A stretch of 64,000 bases of DNA from an uncultured Candidatus Binatia bacterium (GCA_965213675.1 CBDCAF010000016.1:8871-72870); one strand, 5' to 3'; numbered from the stretch's first letter, positions 4,973 to 32,450 are shown. Notes: generated from the letters alone by a model not told the origin. Program-made: numbers and translations.

Positions 4973-4983
4973 GCGCGCCTCGC

Positions 4984-9585: not shown

Positions 9586-9775
9586 CGGATTCGGCAGGGA
9601 GCCGATGACCCCGGCATCAAGCTACCCATGTACCAATGCGCCTTACCAATGCGGTTCACCTGAGCGCTTCCACAACAGGCTGTGCGCTTGTGGCGACCGG
9701 ACTTGCCGGTCTTGCCGCATCAACGGGATCACTTGCTACGACGTTATCTTCGAATCGACCGGCTAACACTTTCCG

Positions 9776-10093: not shown

Positions 10094-10279
10094 GCTCTTC
10101 CTCCGATTTGATTCCCTGCCATGGAGCGCGCAAGGGCGACCGGCCGGCCGCCCTGCACGAGATCCGAACTGCATCAGGAACCGGGTCAGGGAACGGCCCT
10201 GCCGGAGCTTTTCCCGTTCGTCCTGCGCGTGGCTCCGCACCAACGGAGCGACGCGCAGGACGCGCACTCCCCAAAGCCC

Positions 10280-14783: not shown

Positions 14784-14847
14784 AGGGTCGCCCTCGCGTC
14801 CAAGCCCGAGAACGTCTCTTTCCGAACTTGAGCGACGGTTGAAAATC

Positions 14848-17265
14848 ATGGACAAGCGGAGCCTCTCGGAACGAGACATCTGCACGAAGTTCATCACACC
14901 TGCCCTGCGTCGAGCCGGGTGGGATGAGATGCTTCAAATCCGCGAAGAGGTGAGCTTCACCAAGGGTCGCATCATCGTCCGCGGCAAGCTGGTGTCACGC
15001 GGGAAAGCCAAGCGCGCCGACTACGTTCTATATTACAAACCCAACCTTCCCCTTGCGGTCATCGAAGCCAAGGACAACTCCCACAGCGTCGGCGGCGGCA
15101 TACAGCAGGCGCTGGACTACGCCGAAACACTGAACGTTCCCTTCGTGTTCTCATCCAACGGCGACGGTTTCCTGTTTCACGACTGCACCGGCAACGCCAA
15201 CCCGCGAGAGACGCACCTCTCGCTGGACGATTTCCCGTCGCCTGACAAGCTGTGGACGCGCTACCGCGCCTGGAAGGCCCTGGGTCCGGAAGCCGAAGGC
15301 CTCGTCCTTCAGGACTACCATGAGGACGGCGGCGACAAGGCGCCTCGGTACTACCAAGTCATCGCAATAAACGCGGCCATTGAGGCCGCTGCCAAGGGGC
15401 TGGATCGCATCCTCTTGGTCATGGCCACCGGCACCGGCAAGACCTACACGGCGTTCCAGATCATCTGGCGCTTGTGGAAGGCCGGACACAGGAAGCGCAT
15501 CCTTTTCCTCGCCGACCGCAACGTGCTCGTCGATCAGACCATGGTGAACGATTTTCGGCCCTTCGGCAGAGCGATGACGAAGCTTTCTACTCAAGCGAAA
15601 ACCATATGGTGCGATGACCACGGCGTGCACCGAGTCGATACGTCCTACGAGATCTATCTGGGTCTTTATCAGGCAATCACCGGGCCGGACGAAAATCAGA
15701 AAATATATCGTGAGTTCTCTCCCGGATTCTTCGACCTGATTGTCATCGACGAATGCCACCGGGGCAGCGCCGACGAGGACTCGGCTTGGCGCGAGATTCT
15801 TGAGTACTTCTCTTCCGCCACCCAGATCGGACTCACCGCGACGCCGAAAGAGACGCGATACGCTTCCAATATCGCGTATTTCGGAGAGCCGGTGTTCTCC
15901 TACTCGTTGAAACAAGGCATCCACGACGGCTTTCTCGCGCCCTACAAGGTGGTCAAGGTTCATATCGACCGCGACGTCGAAGGCTACCGGCCGGAAAAGG
16001 GGAAGCTCGACCGGTATGGCGAGGAAGTCGACGACCACATCTACAACACCAAGGACTTTGACCACACGCTTGTCATCGACGGGCGCACCAACTTGGTGGC
16101 GCGGAAGGTTACGCAGTTCCTGAAGGAGAGCGGAGACCGATTCCAGAAGGCCATGATCTTTTGCGTCGATCAGGAACACGCGGCGCGCATGCGCCAAGGG
16201 CTGATCAACGAGAACGCCGACCTCATGGACGAGAACCCCCGGTACGTCATGCGTATCACCGGCAGCGATGCTGAGGGACAGGCCGAGTTGGGCAACTTCA
16301 TCGATCCGGAATCGAAACACCCCGTTCTTGTCACCACGTCCCGCCTGCTGTCCACGGGCGTGGACGTGCAGACATGTCGGCTCATCGTGCTCGACCGTGA
16401 AGTCGGCTCGATGACCGAATTCAAGCAGATCGTCGGCCGTGGCACCCGCGTGCACGAGGATACCGGCAAGCTTTACTTCACTCTGATCGACTTCCGCGGC
16501 GCGACCAGTCATTTCGCCGATCCGGAGTTCGATGACGAGCCGGTGCAGGTCTACGAGCCCGGGAAGGGCGAGCCCGTCGATCCGCCCGAAGCCACGTTGG
16601 TCCAGTACGATGATACGTTTTCCGAGTCTCCTAAAAACGACCGCGGTGGCACGACGGTCGTAGTTGATGCCAACTTTCCACCCATTGGAGACGGCTCGCG
16701 CAAGAAGATCTATGTCGACGACGTGAGCGCGACCATCGTCGCCGAACGGGTGGAGTATCTTGACGAGCACGGCGGCCTGGTCACCGAGTCGCTTCGCGAT
16801 TTTACCCGGAAGGCACTACGCAAGCGTTTCGCAAGCCTTGACGACTTCCTGAGGCGATGGAACGGTGCCGAGCGCAAACAGGCGATCATCGATGAGATGG
16901 CGGCCGGGGGGTTGCCACTGGCCGTCATCGCCGAGGAGTTGGGCAAGGACCTCGACCCCTTCGACCTCATCTGTCATGTTGCGTTCGATGCGAGACCGCT
17001 GACTCGCCGAGAGCGCGCTGACAACGTCAGGAAACGCGACGTGTTCAGGAAGTACGGAGAACAGGCCCGCACCGTGCTCGATGCGCTGCTCGACAAGTAC
17101 GCCGACGAAGGCGTGTTGGAACTCGACGACACCAACGTGCTCAGAATCCCGCCGATCAACACGCTTGGCACCCCGGTGGAATTGATCGGAGCCTTTGGCG
17201 ACAGGCCCGGGTACCTGCGCGCCGTCCACGACCTGCAGTCATCACTCTACAGGGAGACCGCATAG
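14848..17265 (+). CDS. hsdR: Type I restriction enzyme R subunit (EcoEI/type IB-like C-terminus)
   Basis: N-terminal nuclease motif (ADYVLY...VIEAKD), helicase motifs ATGTGKT and DECHRGS, and an EcoEI_R_C-like tail. Start at MDKRSL (ATG 14848). Confidence 0.92.
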   Translation: MDKRSLSERDICTKFITPALRRAGWDEMLQIREEVSFTKGRIIVRGKLVSRGKAKRADYVLYYKPNLPLAVIEAKDNSHSVGGGIQQALDYAETLNVPFVFSSNGDGFLFHDCTGNANPRETHLSLDDFPSPDKLWTRYRAWKALGPEAEGLVLQDYHEDGGDKAPRYYQVIAINAAIEAAAKGLDRILLVMATGTGKTYTAFQIIWRLWKAGHRKRILFLADRNVLVDQTMVNDFRPFGRAMTKLSTQAKTIWCDDHGVHRVDTSYEIYLGLYQAITGPDENQKIYREFSPGFFDLIVIDECHRGSADEDSAWREILEYFSSATQIGLTATPKETRYASNIAYFGEPVFSYSLKQGIHDGFLAPYKVVKVHIDRDVEGYRPEKGKLDRYGEEVDDHIYNTKDFDHTLVIDGRTNLVARKVTQFLKESGDRFQKAMIFCVDQEHAARMRQGLINENADLMDENPRYVMRITGSDAEGQAELGNFIDPESKHPVLVTTSRLLSTGVDVQTCRLIVLDREVGSMTEFKQIVGRGTRVHEDTGKLYFTLIDFRGATSHFADPEFDDEPVQVYEPGKGEPVDPPEATLVQYDDTFSESPKNDRGGTTVVVDANFPPIGDGSRKKIYVDDVSATIVAERVEYLDEHGGLVTESLRDFTRKALRKRFASLDDFLRRWNGAERKQAIIDEMAAGGLPLAVIAEELGKDLDPFDLICHVAFDARPLTRRERADNVRKRDVFRKYGEQARTVLDALLDKYADEGVLELDDTNVLRIPPINTLGTPVELIGAFGDRPGYLRAVHDLQSSLYRETA

Positions 17266-17268
17266 GAA

Positions 17269-18720
17269 ATGGCCGTCAGCACTCTTGTCAAGACGATTCA
17301 GGACATCATGCGTCAGGACGTGGGTGTCGATGGCGATGCGCAACGCATCAGCCAGTTATGTTGGATGTTCTTCCTCAAGATCATCGACGATCAGGACCGG
17401 GAGCTTGAATTACTGAAGGAATGCTACCGTTCACCTGTTCCCGACCGGGTGCGATGGCGCAACTGGGCCGCCGATCCGGAAGGGATCACCGGGGACGAGT
17501 TGGCGACCTTCATCAACGCGAACCTCTTTCCGGCACTGAAGGAGCTTCCGGCAGGGAACGACCCGCGCGCAAGGGTTGTAAGGGATGTCTTCGAGGACGC
17601 TTTCAACTACATGAAATCCGGCCAGTTGATCCGGCAGGTGGTCAACAAGATCAACGACATCGACTTCAACAATTTCGCCGAGCGTCAGCACTTCGGCGAC
17701 ATCTACGAGCAAATCCTCAACGACCTGCAATCCGCGGGCAATGCCGGGGAGTACTACACCCCGCGCGCGGTCACATCTTTCATGGTGGAGATGGTCGACC
17801 CCAAACCGGGCGAGACGCTGTTCGACCCCGCCTGCGGTACTGGCGGCTTCCTCACTTGCGCCATCCGCCACATGCGCGACCGCTACATCAAGCGACCGGA
17901 AGACGAGGCGCGGATGCATGCATCCCTTCGCGCTATGGAGAAGAAACCGCTGCCGCACATGCTCGCCGTCACCAACATGCTTCTGCACCACATCGAGGAG
18001 CCCTCTTTCCTGCGTCACGACAACACCCTGGCGCGACCCTACGTCTCCTGGGGCCAAGCCCAGCGCGTGGATATCGTGCTGACCAATCCGCCGTTCGGCG
18101 GCAAGGAGGAACCGGGCATCGAGTCCAACTTCCCAACACACTTCCAGACCCGCGAAACGGCCGATCTGTTTCTCGCGCTGATCATCCGCCTTCTCAAGCC
18201 CGGCGGACGGGCCGCGGTGGTGCTGCCCGATGGCTCGCTCTTCGGCGAAGGCGTCAAGACCCGGCTCAAGGAGCATCTGATGGAAGAGTGCAACCTTCAC
18301 ACCATCGTCCGCCTGCCGAACTCGGTGTTCCGCCCCTACGCTTCCATCGGTACAAACCTGTTGTTTTTCGAAAAGGGCGGACCTACGAGGAATGTCTGGT
18401 TCTGGGAGCACCGCGTCCCCGAAGGACAAAAGCACTACTCGATGACCCGGCCCATCCGGCTGGAGCATCTGGCCGACTGTGCCGCGTGGTGGGGCGGAGC
18501 GAAACGCAAGGGCCGCAAGGAAGGCGGCCGTGCATGGAAGGTCACAGCCAAGGAGGTGAATGAGCGCGGCTACAATCTCGACATCAAGAATCCTCAAACC
18601 GAGGGCCCAGACTACGAAGATCCCGAGACACTTCTCGCAGAACTGGAATCCGCAGAGGCCGATGTGACATCGATACGAAACCAGTTGAAGGAAGCCTTGG
18701 CGGAGGCGTTGCTACGATGA
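17269..18720 (+). CDS. hsdM: Type I R-M N6-adenine DNA methyltransferase subunit
   Basis: HsdM N-terminal domain, SAM motif DPACGTGGFL and catalytic NPPFGG. Confidence 0.95.
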   Translation: MAVSTLVKTIQDIMRQDVGVDGDAQRISQLCWMFFLKIIDDQDRELELLKECYRSPVPDRVRWRNWAADPEGITGDELATFINANLFPALKELPAGNDPRARVVRDVFEDAFNYMKSGQLIRQVVNKINDIDFNNFAERQHFGDIYEQILNDLQSAGNAGEYYTPRAVTSFMVEMVDPKPGETLFDPACGTGGFLTCAIRHMRDRYIKRPEDEARMHASLRAMEKKPLPHMLAVTNMLLHHIEEPSFLRHDNTLARPYVSWGQAQRVDIVLTNPPFGGKEEPGIESNFPTHFQTRETADLFLALIIRLLKPGGRAAVVLPDGSLFGEGVKTRLKEHLMEECNLHTIVRLPNSVFRPYASIGTNLLFFEKGGPTRNVWFWEHRVPEGQKHYSMTRPIRLEHLADCAAWWGGAKRKGRKEGGRAWKVTAKEVNERGYNLDIKNPQTEGPDYEDPETLLAELESAEADVTSIRNQLKEALAEALLR

Positions 18721-18765
18721 AATCAAAGAAGGACCACCATCGCCTTCAGCCTGGAAAAGTTGGTC

Positions 18766-19077
18766 ATGCACGCCGCCATCGCTGACAAGAAGGAAAAGTT
18801 GGCGGAACTCTGCCGTCGCCACGGGGTAGCGCGCCTCGAAGTCTTCGGATCCGCCGCGCGCGGCGCTTACTTCGATCTACAGACCAGCGACGTCGACTTC
18901 CTTGTGGAGTTCAACCCCGACGGAGACCTGCGGCCCTTCCACCAATTCTTCGACCTCGCCGACGCCTTGCGCCACACCTTGGGCCGCTCCGTCGATCTCG
19001 TCGAGTCGGGCATCGTCCGCAACCCGTATCTGCGCGCCGCCATAGACCGGTCGCGCGAGGTTGTCTATGAGTCCTGA
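18766..19077 (+). CDS. Nucleotidyltransferase (MNT) antitoxin of a HEPN/MNT module
   Basis: GSAARG...DVDFLV minimal nucleotidyltransferase motifs. Confidence 0.85.
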   Translation: MHAAIADKKEKLAELCRRHGVARLEVFGSAARGAYFDLQTSDVDFLVEFNPDGDLRPFHQFFDLADALRHTLGRSVDLVESGIVRNPYLRAAIDRSREVVYES

Positions 19078-19423
19078 CCGTCGCGTTCTGCTGACGGACA
19101 TCGACCAGGCGGGCGCGGAAATCCAACGCTTCACGCACGGTCTGGACAGCGTTTCCTACGCCGGCGACGCGCTGACTCAAGCCGCGGTCGAACGGAAGTT
19201 CGAGATCATTGGCGAAGCGTTAAACCGCCTTCACAGGGCCCGCCCAGACATCGCCGGTCAGATTCCCTGGTACCGCCGGATGATCGACTTCCGCAACTTG
19301 TTGATCCACGGCTACGCCAGCGTGCTGCCCGAGCGCGTCTGGGACTATACCGACAACCACCTTCCCGACCTGCGTCGGATCGTGCTGGAGATGCTCGCCG
19401 AGTTGGGACCGCCGATGCCATGA
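19067..19423 (+). CDS. HEPN domain (DUF86) toxin
   Basis: RNLLIHGY (Rx4H) HEPN RNase motif. Overlaps the MNT gene by 11 nt and hsdS by ATGA. Confidence 0.85.
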   Translation: MSPDRRVLLTDIDQAGAEIQRFTHGLDSVSYAGDALTQAAVERKFEIIGEALNRLHRARPDIAGQIPWYRRMIDFRNLLIHGYASVLPERVWDYTDNHLPDLRRIVLEMLAELGPPMP

Positions 19424-21153
19424 ACGCCGAACGCTTGCTAGCCCTGTATGATCGGGTGGCGGAAGCGCCCGACGCCATTCCCCGCCTGCGTCGTTTCGTG
19501 CTCGACCTCGCTGTGCGAGGAAGACTGTTGGCGCAGGATCTGGCGGATGAACCGGCAGCGGAGTTGCTCAAGAGAATAGCGGAGGAAAAAGCACGACTGA
19601 GAGTTCGGCACCATGTCAAACCGCTCGCCGCGCAGGAAATCCCGTTTGTTCTTCCTGCGGGTTGGCTTTGGAACCGGCTCGGGGAGCTTTGCACCAAAAC
19701 CGGTTCTGGTAGTACCCCACGCGGTGGCAAAAGCGTATACAAGGACAATGGAATTCTGTTTCTTCGTTCTCAAAATGTGTATGACGACTGCCTGCGACTC
19801 GACGAAGTAGCCCGAATTGAACCTGGCGTTCACGCTCGTATGGCGGGGACCGCTGTCCAACCGAGAGACCTTCTCCTGAACATAACTGGTGGTTCCATGG
19901 GTCGGTGCTGTCGCGTACCTGACGAGTTTGGGAAGGCCAACCTTAACCAGCACGTCGCCATAATCCGCCCAGCAGTTCTCGAAATGGCCGACTTTCTTCA
20001 TAAACTCGTGCTGTCACCCTACTTCCAGTCCTTCATCGTCGATGAACAGACCGGCGCGGGACGCGGTGGCCTCCCGAAGAACAAAATGGATCGGATAGCT
20101 GTCGCGGTCCCACCCCTCGCCGAACAGCATCGCATCGTCGCCAAGGTCGATGAACTCATGACCCTCTGCGACGAATTGGAAGAAGCCCGTGCCACACGCG
20201 CGGAGACCCGCGACCGGCTGACCAAATCTAGTCTTGGCCGCTTGAGTGCACCTGAAGCGGATGATGAGACTCTTCGCTCCCACGCTCGTTTCGCCATCGA
20301 TGCCTTCCCCGCACATACAGCGCGTATCAACCAAATCAAACACCTTCGCCAAGTCATCTTCGACCTCGCCGTGCGAGGCAAACTAGTAGAGCAGGATCCG
20401 GCGGACGAACCGGCGGCGGAGTTGCTGGAACGGATAGCGGTGGAGAAGGCGAGACTGGTGAAGGCGTGCACGACTGGAATGCCGAAAGCTTCGGTACAGG
20501 CTGACTGCGATGATTTGCCGTTTTTTCTTCCCAGAGGTTGGACTTGGACGCAGATCGCAGAACTTGGCTTGATTAGTCCGCGCAATGATTTTGCCGACGA
20601 TCATGTGGCGTCCTTCGTTCCGATGCCTTTGATTCCGCGAGATTGGCGTGCTTCCAATACTCATCAGACTCGCCCGTGGGGCGAGATAAAGAGGGGTTAC
20701 ACTCATTTCGCTGACGGAGACGTTGCGCTGGCGAAGATCACGCCATGCTTTGAGAATGGCAAGTCCGTCGTTTTCCGCGATCTGACAGGTGGCGTCGGGA
20801 GCGGCACGACCGAGCTTCATGTTGTCCGCCCCATCTGTATGGACGCGGACTACATCCTGCTGTTTCTAAAGACCCCATTTTTCATTGAGACTGGCGTCAC
20901 GAGAATGACTGGTACAGCGGGCCAAAAACGCGTGCCAAGAGATCACTTCGCAAACTCACCGTTTCCCCTCCCACCCCTAGCCGAACAGCATCGCATCGTC
21001 GCCAAGGTCGATGAACTCATGACCCTCTGCGACCGTCTGGATACACGTCTTGCTGCAACAGCCTCCGCTCACCAGCGCCTCCTCGAATCTCTGCTTCGGG
21101 AATCACTGGCGCCCACCGCAAATTTACTTGAGGCACTTGAGGAAGCCAAATAA
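19420..21153 (+). CDS. hsdS: Type I R-M specificity subunit
   Basis: Two target-recognition domains, each followed by the identical conserved helix PPLAEQHRIVAKVDELMTLCD. Duplicated N-terminal/central helical regions. Confidence 0.9.
   Translation: MNAERLLALYDRVAEAPDAIPRLRRFVLDLAVRGRLLAQDLADEPAAELLKRIAEEKARLRVRHHVKPLAAQEIPFVLPAGWLWNRLGELCTKTGSGSTPRGGKSVYKDNGILFLRSQNVYDDCLRLDEVARIEPGVHARMAGTAVQPRDLLLNITGGSMGRCCRVPDEFGKANLNQHVAIIRPAVLEMADFLHKLVLSPYFQSFIVDEQTGAGRGGLPKNKMDRIAVAVPPLAEQHRIVAKVDELMTLCDELEEARATRAETRDRLTKSSLGRLSAPEADDETLRSHARFAIDAFPAHTARINQIKHLRQVIFDLAVRGKLVEQDPADEPAAELLERIAVEKARLVKACTTGMPKASVQADCDDLPFFLPRGWTWTQIAELGLISPRNDFADDHVASFVPMPLIPRDWRASNTHQTRPWGEIKRGYTHFADGDVALAKITPCFENGKSVVFRDLTGGVGSGTTELHVVRPICMDADYILLFLKTPFFIETGVTRMTGTAGQKRVPRDHFANSPFPLPPLAEQHRIVAKVDELMTLCDRLDTRLAATASAHQRLLESLLRESLAPTANLLEALEEAK
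20109..20172 (+). repeat. hsdS internal direct repeat, copy 1
   Basis: 64 nt, identical to 20970-21033 except for one mismatch. The last 54 nt are perfect. Confidence 0.95.
20970..21033 (+). repeat. hsdS internal direct repeat, copy 2
   Basis: See copy 1. Encodes the second PPLAEQHRIVAKVDELMTLCD helix. Confidence 0.95.
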
Positions 21154-21460
21154 GCCGTTGCTTCAGATCCTCAACGAGGTGGGTACGTTAACATGCCTCT
21201 GTCGGGTTGACGGCGATGGACGGACGTTCGGTGACCCCCCAAAGGGAACGAGGCATCCGGTACGCGTCGAGGACACGCATGCCACAGAGACTGGAGAGAC
21301 TCCCAAGGGAAGTGTAGCGGACAACTGTAAATGTCCCATTTGTGTCAATCGAAAATGTCCCACATAGAAGATTGCGAGGAGGTGTACGTCGGGCCAGTCT
21401 GTTGGCAAAAGCCAACAGGAATGGCGCGGCGAACCGATGCACGGATGGGAGACAAGGATG

Positions 21461-22642
21461 TTAGGGAAGATCTAAACAAGAGACCTTTCACATGTCATTA
21501 TGGCGAAAACGGCAGGGCATGGAGGGGGAACGATGAGACAGGCGAGCTTCGCGGAGCTGGAACATGATGGGAAGAAGCGTCGGACGCGGCGGGAGGAGTT
21601 TTTGGAGAAGATGGAGGGGCTGATACCGTGGAGGCGTCTGGAGAAGCGGATAGAGGCATTTTAGCCGAAGGCGGGACGTGGACGGCGGCCGGACCCGTTG
21701 GGGGTGATGCTGCGGGTGCACTGTGTGCAGTTGTTCTACAACCTGAGCGACCCTGGGATGGAAGACCTTTTATACGAGGTGGAGTCGGTGCGGCGCTTTG
21801 TGGGGCTGCGGCTTTCGGGACCATTGCCGGACGAGACAACGATCCTGAATTTTCGTCACCTGCTGGAGGAGCACGGACTGGGGGAGAAGCTGTTCGAGGA
21901 GATCAACGCGCACTTGGCCTCGTTGGGGCGGCGGTTGAAGACGGGGACGATCGTGGACGCGAGCATCATCGCGGCGCCGTCATCGACGAAGAACCTCAAG
22001 GGGGAGCGGGACCCTGAGATGCACCAGACGAAGAAGGGGAAGCAGTGGTACTTCGGGATGAAGGCGCATATCGGAGTGGACGCGGAGTCGGGGTTGACAC
22101 ACAGCCTGGAGACGACGCCGGCCAACGTGTCGGACGTGGCGACGGCGCACGCGCTACGGCACGGGGACGAGGAGCAGGTGTGGGGACACGGGCTACCAGG
22201 GGGTGGGCAAGCGTGAGGAGAACCGGGACGCGCAGGTGGACTGGCAGGTGGCGATGAAGCCGGGCCAGCGCCGGAAGCTGGAGAAGATCGGACCGGAAGA
22301 AGCGGCGGAGAAGCGCAAGGCGTCGGTGCGGGCCAAGGTGGAGCATCCCTTTCTGTACGTGAAGCGCCACTTCGGCTACGCCAAGGTGCGCTACCGCGGG
22401 CTGTGGAAGAACACCCAGCGCATCGCCGTACTGCTCGGGTTCACCAATCTGCTCATCGCAGGGCGCTACGCTTGAGGTCCTGAGGCGGGACCGGTCCGCC
22501 CGCTGCGGCAAGGGAGGGCGAAATACCTGCGGTTTGGTCATAAAACGAGGCCCCGGAACCCTTATCCCCGGTCCCGGGGGTTGAACTGTTCGGACGTTTT
22601 CCCCGCGCCCACCAAAATCGAGGTTGTTAAGACTTTCCCTAA
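21461..22642 (+). mobile_element. Decayed IS5-family insertion sequence (about 1.18 kb)
   Basis: Imperfect terminal inverted repeats: TTAGGGAAGATCTAAACAAG (21461-21480) against the reverse complement of 22623-22642, TTAGGGAAAGTCTTAACAAC (16/20). They enclose an IS5-type DDE transposase reading frame. Confidence 0.7.
21533..22475 (+). pseudogene. IS5-family transposase pseudogene
   Basis: In-frame TAG at 21662-21664, where homologues have Tyr (..[13 protein letters not shown]..). A +1 frameshift near 22170-22190 lies just before GDTGYQGV. The C-terminal AKVEHPF...KVRYRGL is typical of IS5. Confidence 0.8.
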
Positions 22643-22667
22643 AGCAGTGGAAAGCCGTGCATAATCG

Positions 22668-22757
22668 GCGTTCCCCGCACACGCGGGGATGAACCGCGGA
22701 AACCGTGTCGCTGAATGAGCCCCGTCCCGTGATCGCCGAACACTCAGGGTGACCCGC
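22668..22757 (+). CRISPR. Vestigial type I-E-like CRISPR: one intact repeat, one 32-nt spacer, one degenerate repeat
   Basis: GCGTTCCCCGCACACGCGGGGATGAACCG (22668-22696) matches the E. coli I-E repeat GAGTTCCCCGCGCCAGCGGGGATAAACCG at 24/29, with the stem conserved. Exactly 32 nt later, 22729-22757 matches the first repeat at 16/29. No cas genes in the window. Confidence 0.55.
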
Positions 22758-22956
22758 CGAAAATGCTGTTAGACACTGATGCCGTTGACAGACACTGTTT
22801 ATTGAGGCGGTCCTGGATGGCAGACGCGGATCGATCAAGCGCTTCAGGAATGGGTCGCGACACATCGCCGCGCGTGATCCTCTGGATCGGCCACCCACTT
22901 CAGCCGGACTCGCCTGCCCGTTTCCGGCGCCATAGACACCAGGCACAGGAGCAATC

Positions 22957-25173
22957 ATGGATCTCAAGGTCGTAGGGCAACCGGTAGGGCGCGTAGAGGG
23001 TCCGGACAAGGTTTCCGGGCGGATGGTGTACACGGCGGACGTGGACGTGCCGGAAGCGCTGTGGGGCAAGTGCTTGCGCAGCACGCTGGCGCATGCACGG
23101 CTAGTGCGGGTGGACGCATCGCGGGCGCGGCAGGTGCCGGGGGTGCGGGCGGTGCTGACGGGGGCGGACGTGCCGGATTTCCGCGTGGGCGTGAGCCTGC
23201 AGGATCTGCCGGTGCTGGCGCGGGACAAAGTACGCTTCATCGGCGACAAGATCGCGGCGGTGGCCGCGGACACCCTCGACGCGGCGGAGGAAGCGCTGGG
23301 GCTCATCAAGGTGGAATACGAAGAGTTGCCCGCGGCGGCGGACATTGAGGAGGCTCTCGCCGACGGGGCTCCGGTGATCCACGAGGAGCTGGCGGACTAT
23401 GCGGGCGTTCCCGGCCGGCCGGAAGAACGGCCCAACGCGCTTTCTCTCAAAGAGCACACAGCCGGCGATGCGGCGCGGGGGATGGCGGAGGCGGAGGTGG
23501 TCGTGGAGCACACCTTTCGCACGCCGGGGGTGCACCAGGTCTACCTGGAGCCCCACGCCACGGTGGTGTCGGCGGCGGACGACGGGCGCATCGACGTATG
23601 GGCGTCGTGCAAGGCGCCGTTCCGGCTCAAGCAGATGCTGGCGGCGCAACTGGCGTTGGAAGAGGCGAACATCCACGTGCATGGCGTGGCCCTGGGTGGA
23701 GACTTCGGCGGCAAGGGCTCCCAGATGGACGTGCCGGTCTGTTACTACCTCGCCAAGGCCGCGGGGCGCCCGGTGAGGATGGTGATGAACTACACCGAGG
23801 AGTTGATGGCCGGCGACCCGCGCCACGGCTCGGTGATGCGCGTCAAGCTCGGGGCGAAGCGCGACGGCGCCCTGGTGGCCCTGGACAGCGACATCGACTT
23901 CGACAGCGGCGCCTACTCGGGCTTCAAGCCCTCGGAAATCGACGGCACGTTCATCGTCAATGCCTACCGTATCCCCCACTACGCCATCCGCACGCGCAAC
24001 GTCTACACCAACAGCGTGCCCGGCGGCTACATGAAGTCGCCGGGGCAGCCTCAGACCGTGTTCGCCATCGAGTCGCTGCTGGACATGCTGGCGCGGAAAC
24101 TCGACATGGACCCGGTGGCGCTCCGGCTGAAGAACCTGATGCAGGACGGCGACACGTTGCCCAACAAGCGCGGCATGCAGAAGATCCGCTGCCGCGAAAC
24201 CATCGAGGCCGCGCTCGAGGCGGCGGGCTGGAACGACGTTCCCGCCAGCCCGGACACCGGCCGGGGCATGGCCCTCTCCTTTCGCCACACCGGCGGCAGC
24301 GGCACCGTGAACCTGGAGCTGACCTGCGACGCCAGCGGCGGGGTCACGGTGCTCACCGCCATCCCCGACATCGGCACCGGCACGCATACCTTGCTGCGCC
24401 AGATCACCGCGGAGATGCTGACCTTGCCGGCGGACCGGGTGCAGGTGGCGCGCGGCGACACCGATACCTTTGACACCGATGCCGAACCCGGCGGCAGCAA
24501 GATCACCGCCATGGTGGGGCGCGGCCTGGTGGAAGCGGTGGAGGAGCTGCGCCACCGGATGACGGAGGCCGCCGCCCAGGCCCTCGGCTGCCGGCCCGAG
24601 GCGGTGACCCTGGCGGACGGCCGCTTCAGCGCCAGCGGCGCGGCCCTGGCCTTCGCCGACGTGGCCGGAAAACTCATCGCCGAAGACAAGGCGCTGTCGG
24701 TGCACAAGTCCTACCGGCCCGAGCGCTCGCCCGTGCCGGCGTTCTTCGTGCAAGTGGCAGAGGTCGCGGTGGACCGGGAGACCGGCGTCGTGGACGTGAA
24801 GAAAGTGGTGACCGCCCACGACGTCGGCACGATCATCAACCCCCTGGGCCACCAGGGACAGATCGACGGCGGCTTCGTGCAGGGGCTGGGCTACGCGGTC
24901 ATGGAGGAGATGGTCAAGGACGGGCCGCGGGTCACCACCCTCAACCTCGGCGACTACTGCGTGCCGTGCGTGAAGGACCTGCCGCAGCTCGAGACCGTGC
25001 TGGTGGAGGACCAGACCGGCCCCGGTCCCTACAACGCCAAGGCCATTGGGGAAATGAGCATCGTGCCCACGGCCCCGGCCATCGCCAACGCGGTGGAGGC
25101 CGCGGTGGGGATACGCATTCTCGATCTGCCCATCACGGCGGAGAAGGTGTTCAACGCGTTGCGGGACAGGTGA
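22957..25173 (+). CDS. Xanthine dehydrogenase/aldehyde oxidase family molybdopterin-binding large subunit (CoxL-like)
   Basis: 738 aa. The N-terminus VGQPVGRVEGPDKVSGRMVYTADV is typical of the family, with a/b-hammerhead and MoCo-binding domains throughout. Confidence 0.85.
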   Translation: MDLKVVGQPVGRVEGPDKVSGRMVYTADVDVPEALWGKCLRSTLAHARLVRVDASRARQVPGVRAVLTGADVPDFRVGVSLQDLPVLARDKVRFIGDKIAAVAADTLDAAEEALGLIKVEYEELPAAADIEEALADGAPVIHEELADYAGVPGRPEERPNALSLKEHTAGDAARGMAEAEVVVEHTFRTPGVHQVYLEPHATVVSAADDGRIDVWASCKAPFRLKQMLAAQLALEEANIHVHGVALGGDFGGKGSQMDVPVCYYLAKAAGRPVRMVMNYTEELMAGDPRHGSVMRVKLGAKRDGALVALDSDIDFDSGAYSGFKPSEIDGTFIVNAYRIPHYAIRTRNVYTNSVPGGYMKSPGQPQTVFAIESLLDMLARKLDMDPVALRLKNLMQDGDTLPNKRGMQKIRCRETIEAALEAAGWNDVPASPDTGRGMALSFRHTGGSGTVNLELTCDASGGVTVLTAIPDIGTGTHTLLRQITAEMLTLPADRVQVARGDTDTFDTDAEPGGSKITAMVGRGLVEAVEELRHRMTEAAAQALGCRPEAVTLADGRFSASGAALAFADVAGKLIAEDKALSVHKSYRPERSPVPAFFVQVAEVAVDRETGVVDVKKVVTAHDVGTIINPLGHQGQIDGGFVQGLGYAVMEEMVKDGPRVTTLNLGDYCVPCVKDLPQLETVLVEDQTGPGPYNAKAIGEMSIVPTAPAIANAVEAAVGIRILDLPITAEKVFNALRDR

Positions 25174-26097: not shown

Positions 26098-26949
26098 ATG
26101 ATCCACGTTGTCGGAATCGTCGCGAAGTACGGAGAGGAGAAGGCCGAGACGATCATGCGCGGGACCATACCGTGGCTGGAGGGCCGCGGCATGGAGGTGC
26201 TCGTCGAGGCGGAGTACGGCGCCGTGGGCGGAAACGTCGCGCGCAAGGGGGAGATGGCCGAACGCGCCGACCTGATCGTCGTCCTGGGCGGAGATGGCAC
26301 GCTCCTGAGCATTGCCCGGCTGGTGGAACGGCCCGAGGTGCCCGTGGTGGGCGTGAACCTCGGGGGCCTCGGCTTCATTACCGAAATCGCGCTGGACGAA
26401 CTCGAAGAAGTCCTCACGAGCACCATCGCTGAGAACTACACCATCGAGAAACGCATGACCTTGCAGGTCAGCATCGAAGGCCAGGACGGCGTCCAGCACC
26501 TCCGTATCCTCAACGACGCGGTCATCACCAAGGGCGCCCGTTCCAAGATCATCAATCTGGAAACCTACGTCGGCAGCGATTACCTGTGCACCTACCGGGC
26601 CGACGGACTCATCATCTCCACGCCCACGGGATCGACGGCGTATTCGCTGGCCGCGGGAGGCCCGATTCTTCATCCGGCCATGAGCGCCATCATCCTCTGT
26701 CCCATCTGCCCGCACACGCTGACCACCAACCGGCCCATCGTCATCGCCAGCGACGCGCGCATCCGATCCACCCTGAGATCGTCCGGAGACACCGTCATCC
26801 TGATCCCCGACGGTCAGGAGGGAATCCTGTTGAACAACGGCGACCGCGTAGAGGTGCGCCGGCACAAGTCGCCGGTGTCGCTCGTGCGTATTCCCACGCG
26901 GTCGTATTTCGACGTACTCCGCAACAAACTCAAGTGGGGAGAGCGCTAG
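26098..26949 (+). CDS. nadK: NAD(+) kinase
   Basis: GGDGTLL motif and the NadK C-terminal domain (STPTGSTAYSLAAGGPI). The stop codon TAG lies inside the CTAG that bounds the adjacent MITE. Confidence 0.9.
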   Translation: MIHVVGIVAKYGEEKAETIMRGTIPWLEGRGMEVLVEAEYGAVGGNVARKGEMAERADLIVVLGGDGTLLSIARLVERPEVPVVGVNLGGLGFITEIALDELEEVLTSTIAENYTIEKRMTLQVSIEGQDGVQHLRILNDAVITKGARSKIINLETYVGSDYLCTYRADGLIISTPTGSTAYSLAAGGPILHPAMSAIILCPICPHTLTTNRPIVIASDARIRSTLRSSGDTVILIPDGQEGILLNNGDRVEVRRHKSPVSLVRIPTRSYFDVLRNKLKWGER

Positions 26950-27109
26950 TGTGGTGTCTGGTTAATTCGCGTCATAATCTGCGGAGGATTTTTTGTTGTC
27001 GGCAAGGCGCGATGACGAGCAGTGGCGGGTACCACGCGAGGAAGAGCAACGCAGCCGACGGCGAATAAGACCCGCAGATTATGCGCGAATTAACCAGACA
27101 CCACACTAG
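26946..27109. mobile_element. 164-bp MITE with 38/39-bp terminal inverted repeats, bounded by CTAG
   Basis: CTAGTGTGGTGTCTGGTTAATTCGCGTCATAATCTGCGG (26946-26984) against the inverted copy at 27072-27109 (one 1-nt indel). No coding capacity. Confidence 0.8.
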
Positions 27110-27245
27110 CCGTGACCGCCTCGCGTGACGCCGGGCACGTCAGGGGAGACAACAAGGCCGCCCTGCTGGTGCGCTACAGCCGCAGGTTCTGAGGCGGGCG
27201 TGGATCGCGCCCGGACCGGGAACTCGGGCTCGGACGGTGAAAAGG

Positions 27246-29561
27246 TCAGAATTCGAACCCCACCCGCACTCCCGCAAGAGTCTCCGTCCGGCCGAACCCG
27301 TCCTGCACCGCCATCACGCCCAGTGCGACGGACGCGCTCGATTCGTCGGCCAGGCGGACGGTCAGCGCAGCCTTGTTGAGGGACAGGAGGTCCCGGCCGC
27401 GCAGCACGACATCCCGATAGGCGATCCGGCCGCTCTCGTCCACACCGGTAGCCGCTCGAATGCGGCCCGCGACCGAAGAGACCGGCCGCTCGGCGCCCAG
27501 CCGCGCCCCGACCGTGACGAAACGGTGGAGCCGGAAGGAGACATCGAGGTCCACCGAAGCAAGCTGTGCATCGTCGAAGCGCAACAGCGGCCCGCCCCGA
27601 ACCGCAAGATGCGCCAGACGGTTCGTGACGTCGATACGAACCGTCTGGCGGGCCATGACATTGCGTCTCCACGCAAGCTCGACGCTGTCGCCCTTGAGGC
27701 CGAAGGCGCCCGAACCTTGCCAGCCCATGGGCCGGTGCAGTTCCTGTGCAAAGGCCACGCCAAACGTGTCAACTCCGGCGGCTTCTCCTGAACGGTTCGA
27801 GGAGAACGACGCCGCCAGCACCGTCTGCGGGTTCCACCCCGAAATCCCGACACCCCCGGCCTCCCGTTCCCGAACGCCCCTCGCCGCCACGGCCTGCCAG
27901 CGGCCAAGCTCGCCGCTGAAACCCAAGGCGATCCCGGCCGCCTCTCCTGACATCCGGTAGCCGCTTACCGGAAGCCCGGGTCCGCCCAGATGCGCCAGAC
28001 TCTGCACAACGCCCCGTCCCTGGCCGATTCCGACGAACGAGCGCTGGCCCACGAGACCACCCGCCCGGCTGCCGTAACCGTCGGCAGCAACCGTACCCAG
28101 GCCGTTCCGCTCACTGTAGTGTTGGCGCTGCGGCACCAGGTCGAGGTCGTCCATGGAGAGATACGGACCGCGCGCCTCGGCCAAGACGTCCAGTCCGACT
28201 TCGAACGGCGCACGCTGGAAACCGTCCAGAACCACGATGGTCCGGCCGCCCAGGTACCGCTCGATCGCGTCGCGCGGCAGCACGACTTGCGCCCCGTCGG
28301 TCGGCACGACCGCTCCCTCGTCCATGGCGCCCACCGCGAAGTTCGTGCCGCCCATCGGCCGCGAAGCGGCGTCCAGGTCGAGCCGTCCCTGTCCGTAGAT
28401 CTCCCTTTGGCCGTAGTGGGAGGATTTGTCGGCCGTTGCGAGAATGCGCGCGCGCACGTCGTGGTAGCTCAGGTTCGGGAACATGCTCTTCAACGCCGCC
28501 AGACCGGCCGTGACATAGGGTGCCGCCACCGAGGTGCCTCCAGCGAAATCCCAAAGTCCGCTGCGCCGGGTCGTGAGGAGCAATCCCGGCGCGGCAATGC
28601 ACCAGTCGGCCGCAACCCCGCACAGCGACGAATACCCCGCTATGCGGCCTTCCGAGCCGATGCCCACCACCGCCAGCCATCCCTTCTCCAGGTCCGGAAA
28701 GTGCCTGGGCAGCACCGCCTCCATGTGCGGGTTGACACTTCTGCTGTTCCCGGCCGCCCACACGACGACACCGCCCGCCTCCACATAGGCCCGGAACGCC
28801 GGCAGCGACTTCGGCATGATGCGGCCGACGTAGTCGTCCGTCAGGTTAAGGTCCAAGCTCCACGACTTGGTTCGGAACCAGCTCATGTTCGTGGCGCCGA
28901 CCCCGAGCGACCGCATCCAGTCAATTCCCCGAGCGGTCTGCCGGTCGAAGACTCCGCCCCACAAATGCTGGAGTGCACCGAGCCCGCAGTCGGAGCATGT
29001 CCCGTCGTCCCAGGGAACCGGAGCCGAGTTCCCGTAGGATGCAATCCGGGCCTCGTAGGCCACGCCGTACACCCCCGCCCCGTTTCTGCTGGCCGCGACA
29101 ACCCCGAGCACGTTCGTGCCGTGACCGTCGGTGTCGTACAGCGGACTATGGTCGGCCCTGTCGAGTTCGGTACGCCGGTCGTCGTCGCTGCCCATCGCGC
29201 CGCTGCACAGACCCATGGAGCAACTGGCGGCATACTGCCCGCGCAAGTCGACATGGTCGGAGTTCACCCCGGAGTCGAACACCCCGACCGTTTCGCCCGC
29301 CCCGGTCCCCCCTCGGCCGTGCATCGCCGTGACCCTCGCCGCTTCCTCCCTCGCTACCCTGCGCTCCTGGCCGGAGCCGCCGTGCCACGTCGCCGGGAAA
29401 CCCACCGGATGTTCACGGTCCGGCGTGAAACCTCCGGTGTCCGGGGGTGGTGGTGGAGGCGGCGGCGCTGACCTATCGCCGCCGCAGCCGGACAAGGCCA
29501 TGAGTGCCGCGGCCAGAATCAACGCCCGGAGCAGACGACCTGGACTCCGTGCCAATCTCAT
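27246..29561 (-). CDS. Subtilisin-like (S8) serine protease autotransporter, lipoprotein (NalP/SphB1-like)
   Basis: Lipobox LMALSGC after MRLARSPGRLLRAL. D/H/S triad motifs FDSGVNSDH, HGTNVLGV and GGTSVAAPYV. C-terminal beta-barrel ends in GVRVGFEF. A GGGAGG RBS precedes ATG 29561. Confidence 0.85.
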   Translation of the reverse strand: MRLARSPGRLLRALILAAALMALSGCGGDRSAPPPPPPPPDTGGFTPDREHPVGFPATWHGGSGQERRVAREEAARVTAMHGRGGTGAGETVGVFDSGVNSDHVDLRGQYAASCSMGLCSGAMGSDDDRRTELDRADHSPLYDTDGHGTNVLGVVAASRNGAGVYGVAYEARIASYGNSAPVPWDDGTCSDCGLGALQHLWGGVFDRQTARGIDWMRSLGVGATNMSWFRTKSWSLDLNLTDDYVGRIMPKSLPAFRAYVEAGGVVVWAAGNSRSVNPHMEAVLPRHFPDLEKGWLAVVGIGSEGRIAGYSSLCGVAADWCIAAPGLLLTTRRSGLWDFAGGTSVAAPYVTAGLAALKSMFPNLSYHDVRARILATADKSSHYGQREIYGQGRLDLDAASRPMGGTNFAVGAMDEGAVVPTDGAQVVLPRDAIERYLGGRTIVVLDGFQRAPFEVGLDVLAEARGPYLSMDDLDLVPQRQHYSERNGLGTVAADGYGSRAGGLVGQRSFVGIGQGRGVVQSLAHLGGPGLPVSGYRMSGEAAGIALGFSGELGRWQAVAARGVREREAGGVGISGWNPQTVLAASFSSNRSGEAAGVDTFGVAFAQELHRPMGWQGSGAFGLKGDSVELAWRRNVMARQTVRIDVTNRLAHLAVRGGPLLRFDDAQLASVDLDVSFRLHRFVTVGARLGAERPVSSVAGRIRAATGVDESGRIAYRDVVLRGRDLLSLNKAALTVRLADESSASVALGVMAVQDGFGRTETLAGVRVGFEF

Positions 29562-30112
29562 TCGATGCCTCCCTTGTAGCTGATACCGGTTCGAGCACCT
29601 CGGACTACTCTCTCGGATGAGAAACTCTCTCCAAAAGAGTCTCGCCGAATTAATTTGGTCAATTGCGGATGTCTGGGAGCCCCGCTGTAGTGCCGTATAT
29701 CCACTCTCCATGGAATAGGAATACGTCGTGCTTGATGGACAGAGTATATCCGTCTGCTCGTCGCTCACCTTCCGACCGGTCGGACAGTGCCCTTGTTCCA
29801 CTCCGAGCGGATGGCCAAGCCGTCCCTGATGGTCGTGGCGCCGATCAGATTGACCACGCCTCGTGGCCCACCAGGGGGCCGACCCAGGCTCCAGGACGAG
29901 TTGCCTTCGCACGACGGTGAACCGACACAGAACCCTCTCCATGCGTCGAACCTCCAGAAGCCAATAAAACATTGGGGGGTGTCCCGCACCTCAAGTCCGA
30001 CAGGCTGGGCGACCTGTGGAGCGTCTCCGGGGGGCCCTTCGCCGGGCTCGGGCCAGTCCCCTCGGCACGGGATCGGCGGGCGGGCTCACGGGAACGGAAA
30101 CGGGCGGAACTG

Positions 30113-30301
30113 ATGACCGTGCTGGAAACCGACCAGAAGGGGCTGACCTGGCGCGAGATCGCGGTGCTGCTCTGGGGCGCCGAACGAGTCGCGGAAGACT
30201 GGTGGCCGGGGGGCTGGATGCGCGGCCGCGTCAAGCGCCGCATCGCCAAGGCCCGCGCCATGCTGAAGGCATACCGCGATTTCGCCGCGGGGTGGCGATG
30301 A
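30113..30301 (+). CDS. 62-aa putative HTH protein (DUF2285 / sigma-70 region 4-like)
   Basis: LTWREIAVLLWG...RGRVKRRIAKARAMLKAYRDF resembles the C-terminal HTH of DUF2285-type regulators found on mobile elements. This is weak, pattern-based evidence only. Confidence 0.35.
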   Translation: MTVLETDQKGLTWREIAVLLWGAERVAEDWWPGGWMRGRVKRRIAKARAMLKAYRDFAAGWR

Positions 30302-30468
30302 CGGTCGTCGGACCCGCGTTACGCCATGTTCCGGGCTTTGAATTCCGGCGGGATTCGCGATAGGGTCGTGTCCTGAACGTGGCGGGGATCGGAGGTTCGG
30401 AACGAAATGAGAATATCCCTAAAATATTGATAAACAACCCAAAAAAACGATCTCAACACAGAAAAGAC

Positions 30469-30507
30469 CCGCAGATTATGACGCGTATTAACCAGACACC
30501 ACACTAG
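30469..30507. repeat. Solo copy of the MITE terminal repeat, ending in CTAG
   Basis: CCGCAGATTATGACGCGTATTAACCAGACACCACACTAG matches the MITE ends at 38/39. It has the same orientation as the MITE right end and lies about 30 nt before the recN ATG. Confidence 0.8.
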
Positions 30508-30537
30508 ATTGAATGCGTCACCCCGGCGTTGGTATCC

Positions 30538-32244
30538 ATGCTGCAGCAACTCCGCATCCGCAACATCGCCGTCATCGATCAGGCCGAGCTGGAGCTGGGG
30601 CCCGGGCTGAACGTGGTGACGGGCGAGACCGGCGCCGGCAAGACCATGGTCCTTGCCGCGCTGAACCTGATCCTGGGAGGTCGGGCGTCCTCCGACCTGA
30701 TCCGCGCGGGGGAGACCGAGGCCGCGGTGGAGGCCCTGTTCGGCGACCTTCCGGCGCCCACGCGCGGCGCCCTGGAGGCGGCCGGCTGCGACGACGACGA
30801 GCTGGTGCTGCGGCGAGTGGTCACCCGCGGGGGCCGAGGCCGCATCTATCTGAACGGCGGCCTGACCCCGCGTTCGTTCCTTTCCGGGATCGGCGCCGGC
30901 CTGATCCATATCTACGGGCAACACGAGCAGCACACGCTGCTGCGCACCGAGACCCACCTGGCCCTGCTCGACGCCCACGGCGACCTCGCGCCCAAGGCAA
31001 CCGCCATGAAGGAACGTTTCACGGCGTTGGCGGACGCTTGGCAACGGGTATGCGATCTCCGGGAAAAGCTCGCGGACGCGGCGCGGGAAGAAGCGTTGCT
31101 GCGCGCTCAGGCGCGCGAGATCGAAGACAGCGGGCTCGAACCTGGCGAAGAAGAAGCGTTGCTGGACCGGCGGCGGCTGATCGTCCATTCCGAGAGACTC
31201 TACGAGACGTGCAAGGAGGGCCAGGGCCTCCTCTATGACGACGACAACGCGGTGGTGGGAGCGCTGGGACGGTACCTCCCGCGCCTGCGGGAAATGGCGG
31301 CCATCGACGGCGCGTTGTCCGAGGCGGTGACGCTGCTGGAGGGATCAGCGGCACAGATCGATGAAGCCGCGGCCTTGATCCGCCAGTATGCGGATCGGCT
31401 GAACTTCGACCCGCGGGAGTTGGAACGGATCGAGGACCGTCTGGCCGAGATCAACCGGCTGAGACGCAAATACCGCGCGCCGGTGGACGAAATCCTGGCC
31501 TTGGCCGAACGGGCAAGGGAGGAACTCGCGGCCATCGACCGCGGCGAGGAAGATCTGGCCGCGCTGACGCGGGAGTTCGAGAGCGCGCGGGATTCGGCAT
31601 GGACCGCGGCGGAGGAACTGTCTCGCCTGCGCAAGCGCGCCGCCAAGACGCTCCAGCGCCGCATGGAGCAGGAAACCGGCCAGCTCGGCCTGCCGCACAC
31701 GACCTTCGAGGTGCGTTTCCACGCGCGCGGCGCCACGCGCGACGAGCCGCCGTTCGTGATGGGCGGCCGGCGTCTCGGACCGGACGGCGCCGACGATCCC
31801 GAGTTCTTCTTTTCGCCGAACCCCGGCCATGCCGCCCAACCGCTCGCCCGGATCGCCTCGGGCGGCGAGCTATCACGCCTCATGCTGGCGCTCAAGTCCA
31901 TCGTGCTGACCGGGAGCGAGATCCCCACGCTGCTGTTCGACGAGGTGGATGCCGGTATCGGCGGCGGCGTGGCCGAGATGGTGGGCCGGAGGCTCGCCGC
32001 CGTGGCGCGCTCCCACCAGGTGATCTGCGTGACGCACCTGGCCCCCATCGCCGCGCTGGCGCGCTCGCACTACGTGGTGGAGAAGACCGTCGCACAAGGC
32101 CGCACGTTCACCACGGTGCGGAAGCTCGAGGAGGCCGAGCGCGTGCGCGAACTGGCGCGGATGCTGGCGGGCGTGAAGGTGACCGCTCAGGCGGAACGGC
32201 ACGCCGCAGAGATGCTCAAGGTCGGCGAGTCCGGGCGGGCCTGA
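30538..32244 (+). CDS. recN: DNA repair protein RecN
   Basis: [14 protein letters not shown]..., Walker A GETGAGKT, long coiled coils and a C-terminal SMC signature/Walker B ([12 protein letters not shown]...[12 protein letters not shown]). Confidence 0.92.

Positions 32245-32374: not shown

Positions 32375-32450
<76 letters not shown>

Follow-up and report, generated by a model that had tools for sequence, protein, structure and literature searches.

In the genome of an uncultured Candidatus Binatia bacterium, the genes nadK and recN are separated by a cassette of passenger genes that is bounded by the ends of a miniature inverted-repeat transposable element (MITE). Here we argue that this cassette is the remnant of a decayed island lodged inside a MITE, the MITE itself being derived from an insertion sequence (IS) of the IS630 family, so that the locus would record a history of three layers; we put the probability of this reading at roughly 60%. 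The window, that is, the whole stretch of DNA that was analysed, comprises 64,000 nucleotides (GCA_965213675.1, CBDCAF010000016.1:8871-72870), and positions are counted from its first letter; loci used for comparison are cited by L numbers. Much of what the argument needs can be read directly from the sequences compared, namely the identity of the MITE and of its IS630-family relative, an allele of the locus that carries the MITE only, the entry of islands into MITEs at other sites, the identity of the stretch 30405-30507 with one class of island junctions, and the mismatched flanks of a chimeric MITE. From these we infer the order and mechanism of the deletions, as well as integration at nadK-recN rather than import of a finished unit.

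The features of the locus, each with the evidence in brackets, are as follows.

26098-26949, plus strand: nadK, NAD kinase (Pfam NAD_kinase and NAD_kinase_C; sequence).
26946-26949, no strand: left CTAG, at which the first MITE, M1, inserted in the IS630 manner (TA presumably duplicated) (sequence; CTAG flanking in the family).
26950-27105, plus strand: IS630-derived MITE of 156 bp, made up of an A-type end, a core, the attachment (att) core ATAAGACCC (27065-27073) and a B-type end (inverted repeats).
26966-26985, plus strand: terminator-like hairpin and T-run in the MITE end (consensus scan, pattern match only).
27106-27192, plus strand: middle CTAG and the last 29 codons (LAVTASRDAGHVRGDNKAALLVRYSRRF and stop) of an outer-membrane-barrel-type gene, the apparent insertion junction of a second MITE, M2 (translation alignment with a 134-aa open reading frame (ORF) in L091).
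27246-29561, minus strand: S8 subtilase cargo gene, 771 aa (Pfam Peptidase_S8, ribosome-binding site, AlphaFold2, Foldseek).
29972-30301, plus strand: cargo gene for a DNA-binding protein of 109 aa, RovC_DNA-bd, formerly DUF2285 (Pfam PF10074).
30405-30461, minus strand: 'ext1', a putative 57-nt leftover of the integrase-proximal arm of an island, including GTTGAGATC and TTTATCAATAT.TTA (identity to 22 loci).
30462-30470, no strand: att core AAAAGACCC, the apparent join of MITE and island, that is, the crossover region (allele pairs; complementary junction class).
30471-30503, minus strand: B-type terminal inverted repeat, apparently the original right end of M1, 3.4 kb from the M1 body (match to L088).
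30504-30507, no strand: right CTAG of the M1 insertion site (sequence; identical junction in L088).
30538-32244, plus strand: recN (Pfam SMC_N and AAA_23; same start called in L088).

The terminus of the element, about 35-38 bp long, is present in three copies, at 26950-26984 (plus strand), 27072-27105 (minus strand, with a 1-nt deletion) and 30469-30503 (minus strand), and its 35-nt pattern had no match among 100 shufflings of the window. Each outer terminus abuts a CTAG (26946-26949, 27106-27109 and 30504-30507), so that the unit 26946-27109 consists of 164 bp, a MITE of 156 bp plus two CTAGs. The 3' end of nadK reads ...GAG CGC TAG, its stop codon being the TAG of the left CTAG, and 30 nt lie between the right CTAG and the ATG of recN (30538). 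The outermost ends, 26950-26984 and 30469-30503, are inverted, identical at 34 of 35 positions and enclose the passenger genes; no transposase or integrase was found between them. What does lie between the repeats is a 29-codon gene stump, the S8 subtilase gene, the 109-aa RovC_DNA-bd ORF and an AT-rich tract that reaches the third repeat. The original prediction, made from the window alone, had described the three copies (the third in the orientation of the MITE right end), the 164-bp unit, the CTAGs at the outer termini, the nadK stop in the left CTAG and the short distance to recN, and all six of its sequence statements hold.

To which family does the element belong? When one genome per species was scanned for the first 17 nt of the terminus, at least 87 loci matched, mostly in metagenome-assembled genomes; nearly all belong to Binatia or bear the label Deltaproteobacteria or Thermodesulfobacteriota. 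Among the matches listed, 119 of 139 terminus ends are flanked by CTAG; the 43 complete MITEs have CTAG at both sides in 35 cases and, with a single exception, combine one A-type end (...GCGGAGGATTTTT) with one B-type end (...GCGGGTCTTTTTCG), that is, 42 of 43; their sizes cluster at a modal 157 bp (19 copies), at about 178 bp and at about 216 bp. The element is thus small, non-coding and multi-copy, with 156 bp in the window. Three loci (L050, L073 and L081) carry, in addition, an IS of about 1155 bp with CTAG at both flanks. The right inverted repeat of this IS, TGTGGTGTCTGGTTAATTCG, is identical to the MITE ends over their first 20 nt, its left repeat is TGTCCTGTCCGATTAATTAG, and both MITE ends derive from the right one. 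The 372-aa ORF of the IS matches NCBIfam NF033545, 'IS630 family transposase', with 260 bits (cut-off 100), and contains Pfam DDE_3 and HTH domains. Elements of the IS630 family duplicate TA, and IS630 itself prefers a TA within CTAG, according to PMC2170065 and to titles by Tenzen and Ohtsubo among its references; taken from sequence alone, the CTAG flanks would fit a duplication of either 2 bp (TA) or 4 bp (CTAG). An exact empty site for the MITE copy of the window was not found, L089 and L090 being too diverged.

The repeat of the window is therefore the right inverted repeat of an IS630-family IS, and the element is an IS630-derived MITE and not a member of the IS5 group, because the IS ends and transposase match and the CTAG flanks fit the TA-in-CTAG target of IS630. 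IS5-group membership, which had been suggested from the CTAG flanks, was rejected, as the only IS sharing the ends belongs to the IS630 family and the ends begin with TGTGG; the ends of IS5 elements typically carry GGAAGG/GAG motifs. The same data, an autonomous IS with the same repeat, dispersed copies and the prevailing CTAG flanks, bear out the proposal that the repeats are termini of a mobile element and refute a family of regulatory palindromes. In other MITE subfamilies, represented in L081 (3760-3960), L043 (288-453), L039 and L086, the ends correspond to the left inverted repeat of the IS (TGTCCTGTCC...) and not to the right. In L081, a MITE sits in a CTAG directly abutting the IS and another MITE; such tandem pile-ups of MITEs and IS can arise because each insertion regenerates CTAG targets. 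L077 has a seemingly similar arrangement, a MITE and a solo end separated by 2.7 kb, which was dismissed as a second example of the cassette since it encloses ordinary housekeeping genes.

The history of the nadK-recN locus can be approached through its alleles in relatives. The exact nadK protein of the window is also encoded on ENA contig ctg113964 (L088), which is 99.5% identical to the window over 4.3 kb ending at the right CTAG of the MITE, with 20 differences (0.48%) in the 4138 nt upstream of the MITE. The order in L088 is nadK, CTAG, MITE (157 bp), CTAG, then ATTGAATG... and recN, the 3.4-kb segment being absent. In the more distant L089 and L090, with NadK 91% and 89% identical, recN follows 75-80 nt 3' of nadK, with neither MITE nor protease, and the context of the nadK stop is GTAG. 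Since L088 has the MITE only and L089 and L090 have neither, the protease was inserted, and the cargo is separable from the MITE. These alleles accord with three earlier proposals: nadK and recN are directly neighbouring in L089 and L090; the 3.4 kb, missing from all three relatives, is foreign DNA inserted between conserved neighbours; and the left end at 26950 and the distal end at 30503 do belong together, since both, as L088 indicates, stem from a single original MITE insertion. They do not bear out two others. The idea of a 3.56-kb unit that moved as a composite or mobile insertion cassette finds no support: L088 keeps the MITE and lacks only the cargo, and the closest protease homologue, in L091, has no repeats around it. 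In the suggested alternative, a MITE inserted beside an older cassette, the events are in the wrong order, as the MITE was there before the cargo; the distal copy includes 57 nt of island arm.

The nature of the distal end follows from comparison with other loci. The stretch 30405-30503 of the window matches L044, L041, L016, L006 and L010 over exactly 99 nt, of which 46 nt are the MITE B-end and about 57 nt are non-MITE sequence. With a 21-mer laid across this junction, metagenomes yielded 17 further loci, the identity over the 99 nt to the 22 loci being 83-92%; including the window, there are thus 23 junction loci, which represent 18 different outer flanks. These loci read CTAG, B-end, ...CTGCGGGTCTTTT, then CTGCRTTGAGATC...TTTATCAATATGTTA, and the arm runs 150-600 nt further into the 5' end of a tyrosine integrase gene (P4-type, with an Arm-DNA-binding domain) that is read inwards. 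The integrase adjoins the homologous junction in L105, L093, L041, L044, L006, L016, L095 and L097; in the window, the homology to the islands ends at 30405. Four pairs of alleles (L092/L087, L094/L065, L095/L009 and window/L088) are identical through CTAG, B-end and CTGCGGGTCTTTT, after which one allele continues into the MITE core and the other into the island arm. In particular, the sites of three metagenome junctions (L092, L094 and L095) hold an intact MITE in OZ220710.1 (L087, L065 and L009), with flanks 98.5-100% identical, and the B-end, CTAG and recN flank of the window differ from those of L088 by 1 mismatch in 46. Judging from these junctions, the supposed solo end belongs to the resident MITE as its right terminus and appears to be joined to the integrase-proximal arm of an island. 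Side observations on these islands concern their integrase genes: in L093 (= L100, L103), the island next to the junction has two integrase paralogues, at oriented positions 355-1215 and 4422-5311, about 4 kb apart and 68% identical in DNA sequence, with a MITE-derived arm preceding the outer one only; and the junction-proximal integrases are frameshifted or truncated in several loci (L041, L044, L006 and L105).

A complementary class of junctions was found in L011, L040, L064 and L083, which read A-end, core, ...GAAAAAGACCC, (G/T/A)TATAT...GATCTCAAC, then about 310 nt and a second integrase gene (present in L011, L083 and L064), the junction ending at ...AAAAAGACCC. On OZ220710.1, the L064 junction (near 2.104 Mb) and the L044 junction (near 2.196 Mb) are 92 kb apart, in the order and orientation expected of one split MITE. 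Their outer flanks are formed by the ends of two genes, one transporter-like and one for a luciferase-like monooxygenase, and are about 270 nt apart in the relative L043. The sequence AAAAGACCC is kept at both junction classes as a 9-bp common core, and an attP can be reconstructed as GATCTCAAC-GCAG-AAAAGACCC-GTATATCATATGTC-GATCTCAAC, each arm of which bears an integrase gene. Comparison of the junctions thus lends good support to a family of islands that appears to integrate into the MITE at this 9-bp core. An attachment site of the tRNA type was discarded as a candidate, no tRNA being near any junction. A search of the literature found no description of an integrase island that uses a MITE as attB, and a scan of a viral contig collection with a 16-mer of the junction gave chance matches only.

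Taken together, these observations suggest a wider scheme which we consider rather probable. Copies of the IS630-derived MITE would act as dispersed, multi-copy att sites for islands with a tyrosine integrase gene at each end (attP core AAAAGACCC between GATCTCAAC repeats); the spread of the MITE by the transposase would create new landing pads; and recombination between MITEs would leave integrase-less cassettes with a functional IS630 pair of ends, perhaps capable of being mobilised again.

Could the cassette, nevertheless, have arrived as a transposon? Transposase-driven movement of the whole 26950-30503 unit would be mechanistically feasible. In the explicit form of this explanation, an IS630 transposase acting in trans would have paired the A-end at 26950 with the B-end at 30503 and moved the 3.55-kb unit into a CTAG between nadK and recN, L088 having later lost the cargo via the direct repeats of the B-end. 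The outer ends look suitable, being inverted and nearly identical, of A plus B type as in complete MITEs, and CTAG-flanked, and the 44-bp direct repeats could mediate the deletion that would give L088; moreover, IS630-associated composite transposons are said, in a title of Tenzen and Ohtsubo from 1991 among the references of PMC2170065, to transpose to TA in CTAG. However, the unit was not found at a second site among the loci compared, and the B-end of L088, ATGACGCGAATT, is not the hybrid expected from the left part of copy 2 (ATG-CGCGAATT) and the right part of copy 3 (ATGACGCGTATT). The single-nucleotide differences among the three B-end copies do not discriminate between insertion and deletion. 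Three other sites show the same polymorphism, with the intact MITE as the unoccupied allele, which argues for recurrent insertion into MITEs. Finally, the scheme leaves the assembly of the unit unexplained and still needs the history of the island and M2 at an earlier locus. We consider it improbable.

A more trivial explanation would be that the window or L088 was mis-assembled across the repeated MITE ends. Such ends are indeed repeated, and many short-read contigs break at them; but the repeat is only about 160 bp long, contig names such as ctg113964_19x_l suggest (as far as names can) long-read assemblies, and both junction types recur independently across many samples and genomes. In addition, P0121, the subtilase, is listed as a cluster of 5 member sequences, the longest contig being 75 kb, although this is weak support, as the exact look-up returned no contig. 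Indeed, exact-protein look-ups of recN, of the 771-aa subtilase and of the 692-aa P0121 yielded no contig, and the cargo-bearing allele was not recovered from other contigs. An artefact of assembly seems very improbable.

The part of the cassette next to nadK tells of a second event. The middle CTAG (27106-27109), read in frame as CTA GCC (Leu-Ala), opens the 29 codons LAVTASRDAGHVRGDNKAALLVRYSRRF and stop, which align with the C-terminus of the 134-aa barrel-type ORF of L091, ...HLAAIASRDAGHVRGRNEAVLLIRYSRRF and stop, the stump being homologous to L091 5782-5880. The sequence thus points to the B-end at 27105 as a true IS630-type insertion junction, apparently that of the second MITE, M2, in the barrel gene. 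The left flank of the window MITE is nadK and its right flank a fragment of an unrelated gene; because these flanks come from two different insertion sites, the present MITE must be a recombinant, its left part coming, we infer, from the resident M1 and its right part from M2. The window MITE differs from that of L088 at 3 of 157 positions, compared with 20 of 4138 in the flank (Poisson estimate, P ~0.04). At the left edge of the cargo (27110), nothing like either IS repeat was found as a second inverted repeat.

The simplest history of the locus, tentative above all in its deletion steps, can be envisaged as follows. An MITE of about 157 bp with one A-type and one B-type end, M1, would have transposed into the TA of a CTAG overlapping the nadK stop, a state kept in L088. 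An island with tyrosine integrases would then have integrated into M1 at AAAAGACCC, a core located within the hairpin and T-run on the inner side of the B-type end; this would split M1 so that the A-end and the core stayed beside nadK and the B-end came to lie beside recN, joined to the arm 30405-30461. In the island, a gene of outer-membrane-barrel type would have contained M2, present already or inserted later, at a CTAG read in frame. The left half of M1 would have recombined with M2, with loss of the left part of the island, to re-create a complete-looking MITE (26950-27105) beside the stump 27106-27192. A further deletion would have removed the integrase next to 30405, the end state being an integrase-less remnant of 3.4 kb between direct B-end repeats of about 44 bp.

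Several observations weigh against this history. The canonical left junction (A-end, core, arm of the second integrase) is absent from the window, where the nadK side shows a complete MITE followed by a foreign gene stump; only the junction of the first-integrase side is present (30405-30507), so that only the right junction speaks for the former presence of the island at nadK-recN. Neither an integrase nor a remnant of one was found in 27110-30404. An undeleted island at nadK-recN, from which the presumed recombination of M1 with M2 would have started, was likewise not found. The distal B-end differs from that of L088 by one base (TAATACGCG vs TAATTCGCG). As for the islands in general, the 92-kb insert in OZ220710.1 may be one island or a tandem array, and integrases 86-89% identical to the island integrase are intact in L143-L145 and have no MITE arm upstream, which confines the link with the MITE to a sub-lineage. 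These three homologues had been followed in search of the far end of an intact island, and were dropped for want of that arm. L145 contains, as a separate matter, three tyrosine integrase genes side by side at 7427-11092 (two in tandem, one divergent), beside genes of toxin-antitoxin or restriction type and with no MITE arm, a trio that resembles multi-recombinase islands (GInt-like).

Another explanation is import of the cargo as a circular 'translocatable unit'. A decayed island with M2, located elsewhere between direct B-ends, would have looped out as a circle with one B-end, and one crossover within the B-end (about 44 bp) would have brought it into the nadK-recN MITE, the crossover being either RecA-dependent or catalysed by an integrase in trans. 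A single crossover would yield the exact layout observed, i.e. complete MITE, CTAG, cargo, then arm, B-end and CTAG, and would explain direct repeats of the full-length B-end, given that canonical junctions duplicate only 9 bp; the distal TAATACGCG variant, which L088 lacks, was also seen in MITEs of L057, another Binatia genome. Yet this route takes more steps than decay in place, because another locus must first have gone through the history of island and M2; for RecA-dependent recombination, 44 bp is a short stretch; and no donor locus was found. Import of this kind appears doubtful, and decay in place of an island integrated into M1 is the reading that we retain.

Read inwards, the MITE ends contain a short GC hairpin (CGCrnCATAATCTGCG) followed by a T-run and so resemble an intrinsic terminator, by pattern match only; the hairpin copy at 26966 lies directly 3' of the nadK stop, and the hairpin and T-run of the B-end contain the island att core, the crossover core being the T-run itself. 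A sigma-70 promoter scan of 26900-30600 found none. The AT-rich tract before recN is the island arm, which at other loci lies upstream of an integrase gene that is read away from recN, and the proposed recN promoter in this tract finds no support. Rfam gave no match in the MITE or in the island arm, which is why a structured RNA was rejected as an explanation.

How does this arrangement compare with known systems? The RUP element of Streptococcus pneumoniae is a short, non-coding, IS630-derived element that inserts into TA, is multi-copy and is presumed to be mobilised in trans (PMC2229807, PMC2170065). Like RUP and other MITEs of the IS630 or Tc1-mariner kind, the MITE of the window is short and non-coding, with IS630-type ends, probable TA insertion, many copies and a presumed mobilisation in trans, and it is an ordinary new member of the IS630-derived kind. 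Unlike RUP, it occurs in Binatia-like genomes, has the strong CTAG preference of IS630 itself and takes both ends from the right repeat of its IS; it also carries a site for an integrase island, of which no report was found for RUP.

Mobile insertion cassettes hold passenger genes between IS-type ends with no transposase inside. The cassette of the window resembles them, as well as IS630 composite transposons, in its passenger genes between two IS-type ends, its lack of an internal transposase and its CTAG/TA flanks, but differs in that its passenger DNA, to judge by the alleles and junctions, came by an integrase-type route into a resident MITE. A closer parallel is offered by P4-like tyrosine-integrase islands and by CIMEs, the latter being integrase-less derivatives of islands flanked by att sites. 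The MITE islands share with these the occupied and unoccupied alleles, the short common core and, in intact copies, an integrase beside the att site, and the remnant in the window has, like CIMEs, lost its recombinase. Their attB, however, lies in a dispersed MITE, with many targets per genome, and not in a tRNA or housekeeping gene; the islands have integrase genes at both ends; and direct repeats of the MITE end, not canonical attL and attR, enclose the remnant. The use of one repeated element by another as a multi-copy target has precedents in IS1397 and ISKpn1, which target REP/BIME, and in filamentous prophages of Neisseria, which target dRS3. Those systems employ DDE or IS110-type transposases, whereas the MITE islands have tyrosine integrases and an IS630-derived MITE as target. 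The MITE as multi-copy attB of a family of two-integrase islands thus appears, with good support from the junction sequences, to be an unusual variant, of which no description was found in the literature.

What had looked like a 'MITE plus solo end' cassette thereby becomes a readable history of transposition, site-specific integration into the transposon and decay. If the integrases do act on the MITE site, the placement of islands in uncultured Binatia-like bacteria would depend on where transposases have scattered the MITEs, and island cargo, in this case a secreted subtilase, would have a route to fixation beside core genes such as recN. For annotation, there is a warning in that 'solo' MITE ends can be att junctions.

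The cargo comprises two genes. The subtilase gene starts at 29561, preceded by the ribosome-binding site AAGGGAGG, and encodes a lipoprotein signal with the lipobox LSGC, a poly-Pro linker and a Peptidase_S8 domain (Pfam, 6e-38), the only domain detected by hidden Markov models (HMMs). An AlphaFold2 model of the C-terminal 368 aa, built with 36 homologues (pLDDT 79), consists mainly of long antiparallel beta-strands that form a barrel. A Foldseek search with this model retrieved the translocators of NalP, EspP, AIDA and Hbp and also porins (E = 1e-7 to 1e-4, TM-scores 0.3-0.4); the C-terminal part gave no match to a Pfam or NCBIfam autotransporter beta-domain and no sequence match in the PDB. 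The 'autotransporter protease' of the original prediction is upheld as regards the protease, and the lipoprotein signal and the modelled barrel are in its favour; the lack of an autotransporter HMM match and the similarity to porins leave the autotransporter part uncertain, a NalP-like lipoprotein autotransporter being plausible on the strength of the model. The closest homologue, in L091, from the sponge-symbiont bin RHO3_bin_65, is 83% identical in protein and 85% in DNA sequence; it is surrounded by island-type genes (a TOTE-system primase and a methyltransferase), with no IS630 ends around, and apart from this unflanked homologue there were no cargo matches among the 145 loci. The 109-aa ORF matches Pfam PF10074 at E = 1e-8 and 36 bits (cut-off 26.4); regulators of the DUF2285 type are typical of integrative elements.

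Some further observations concern the remainder of the window. A tyrosine integrase gene at 55569-56702 (minus strand) shares 77% DNA identity with the gene of the second island integrase in L011 and L083 and seems frameshifted (three tblastn segments). Upstream of it lies TTTTTCAATATGTTAC, near to the TTTATCAATATGTTA arm motif, with no MITE or AAAAGACCC junction evident, and a divergent ORF with a ThyX (Thy1) domain starts at 56951. The window and L088 differ in a second place (14384-22808 vs L088 4532-6711): this place is taken in the window by a type I restriction-modification system of 8.4 kb (HsdR 14719-17265, HsdM 17269-18720 and an HsdS-like gene, 19420-21153, in which 65 nt are repeated, at 20108 and 20969), and in L088 by 2.2 kb that contain toxin-antitoxin genes (BrnT/BrnA), an RNase H-like gene and a further MITE copy (L088 4707-4871). 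A tRNA-Ala gene, confirmed by Rfam, is located at 32375-32450, about 130 nt downstream of recN; the 98-nt 'tRNA-Thr' that ARAGORN called at 24199-24296 (minus strand), within a molybdopterin-oxidoreductase ORF (22957-25173), is probably a false positive. Finally, the segments 61007-61306 and 62589-62888 form a 300-nt direct repeat with 69% identity, 1582 nt apart, and probably represent tandem paralogous genes.

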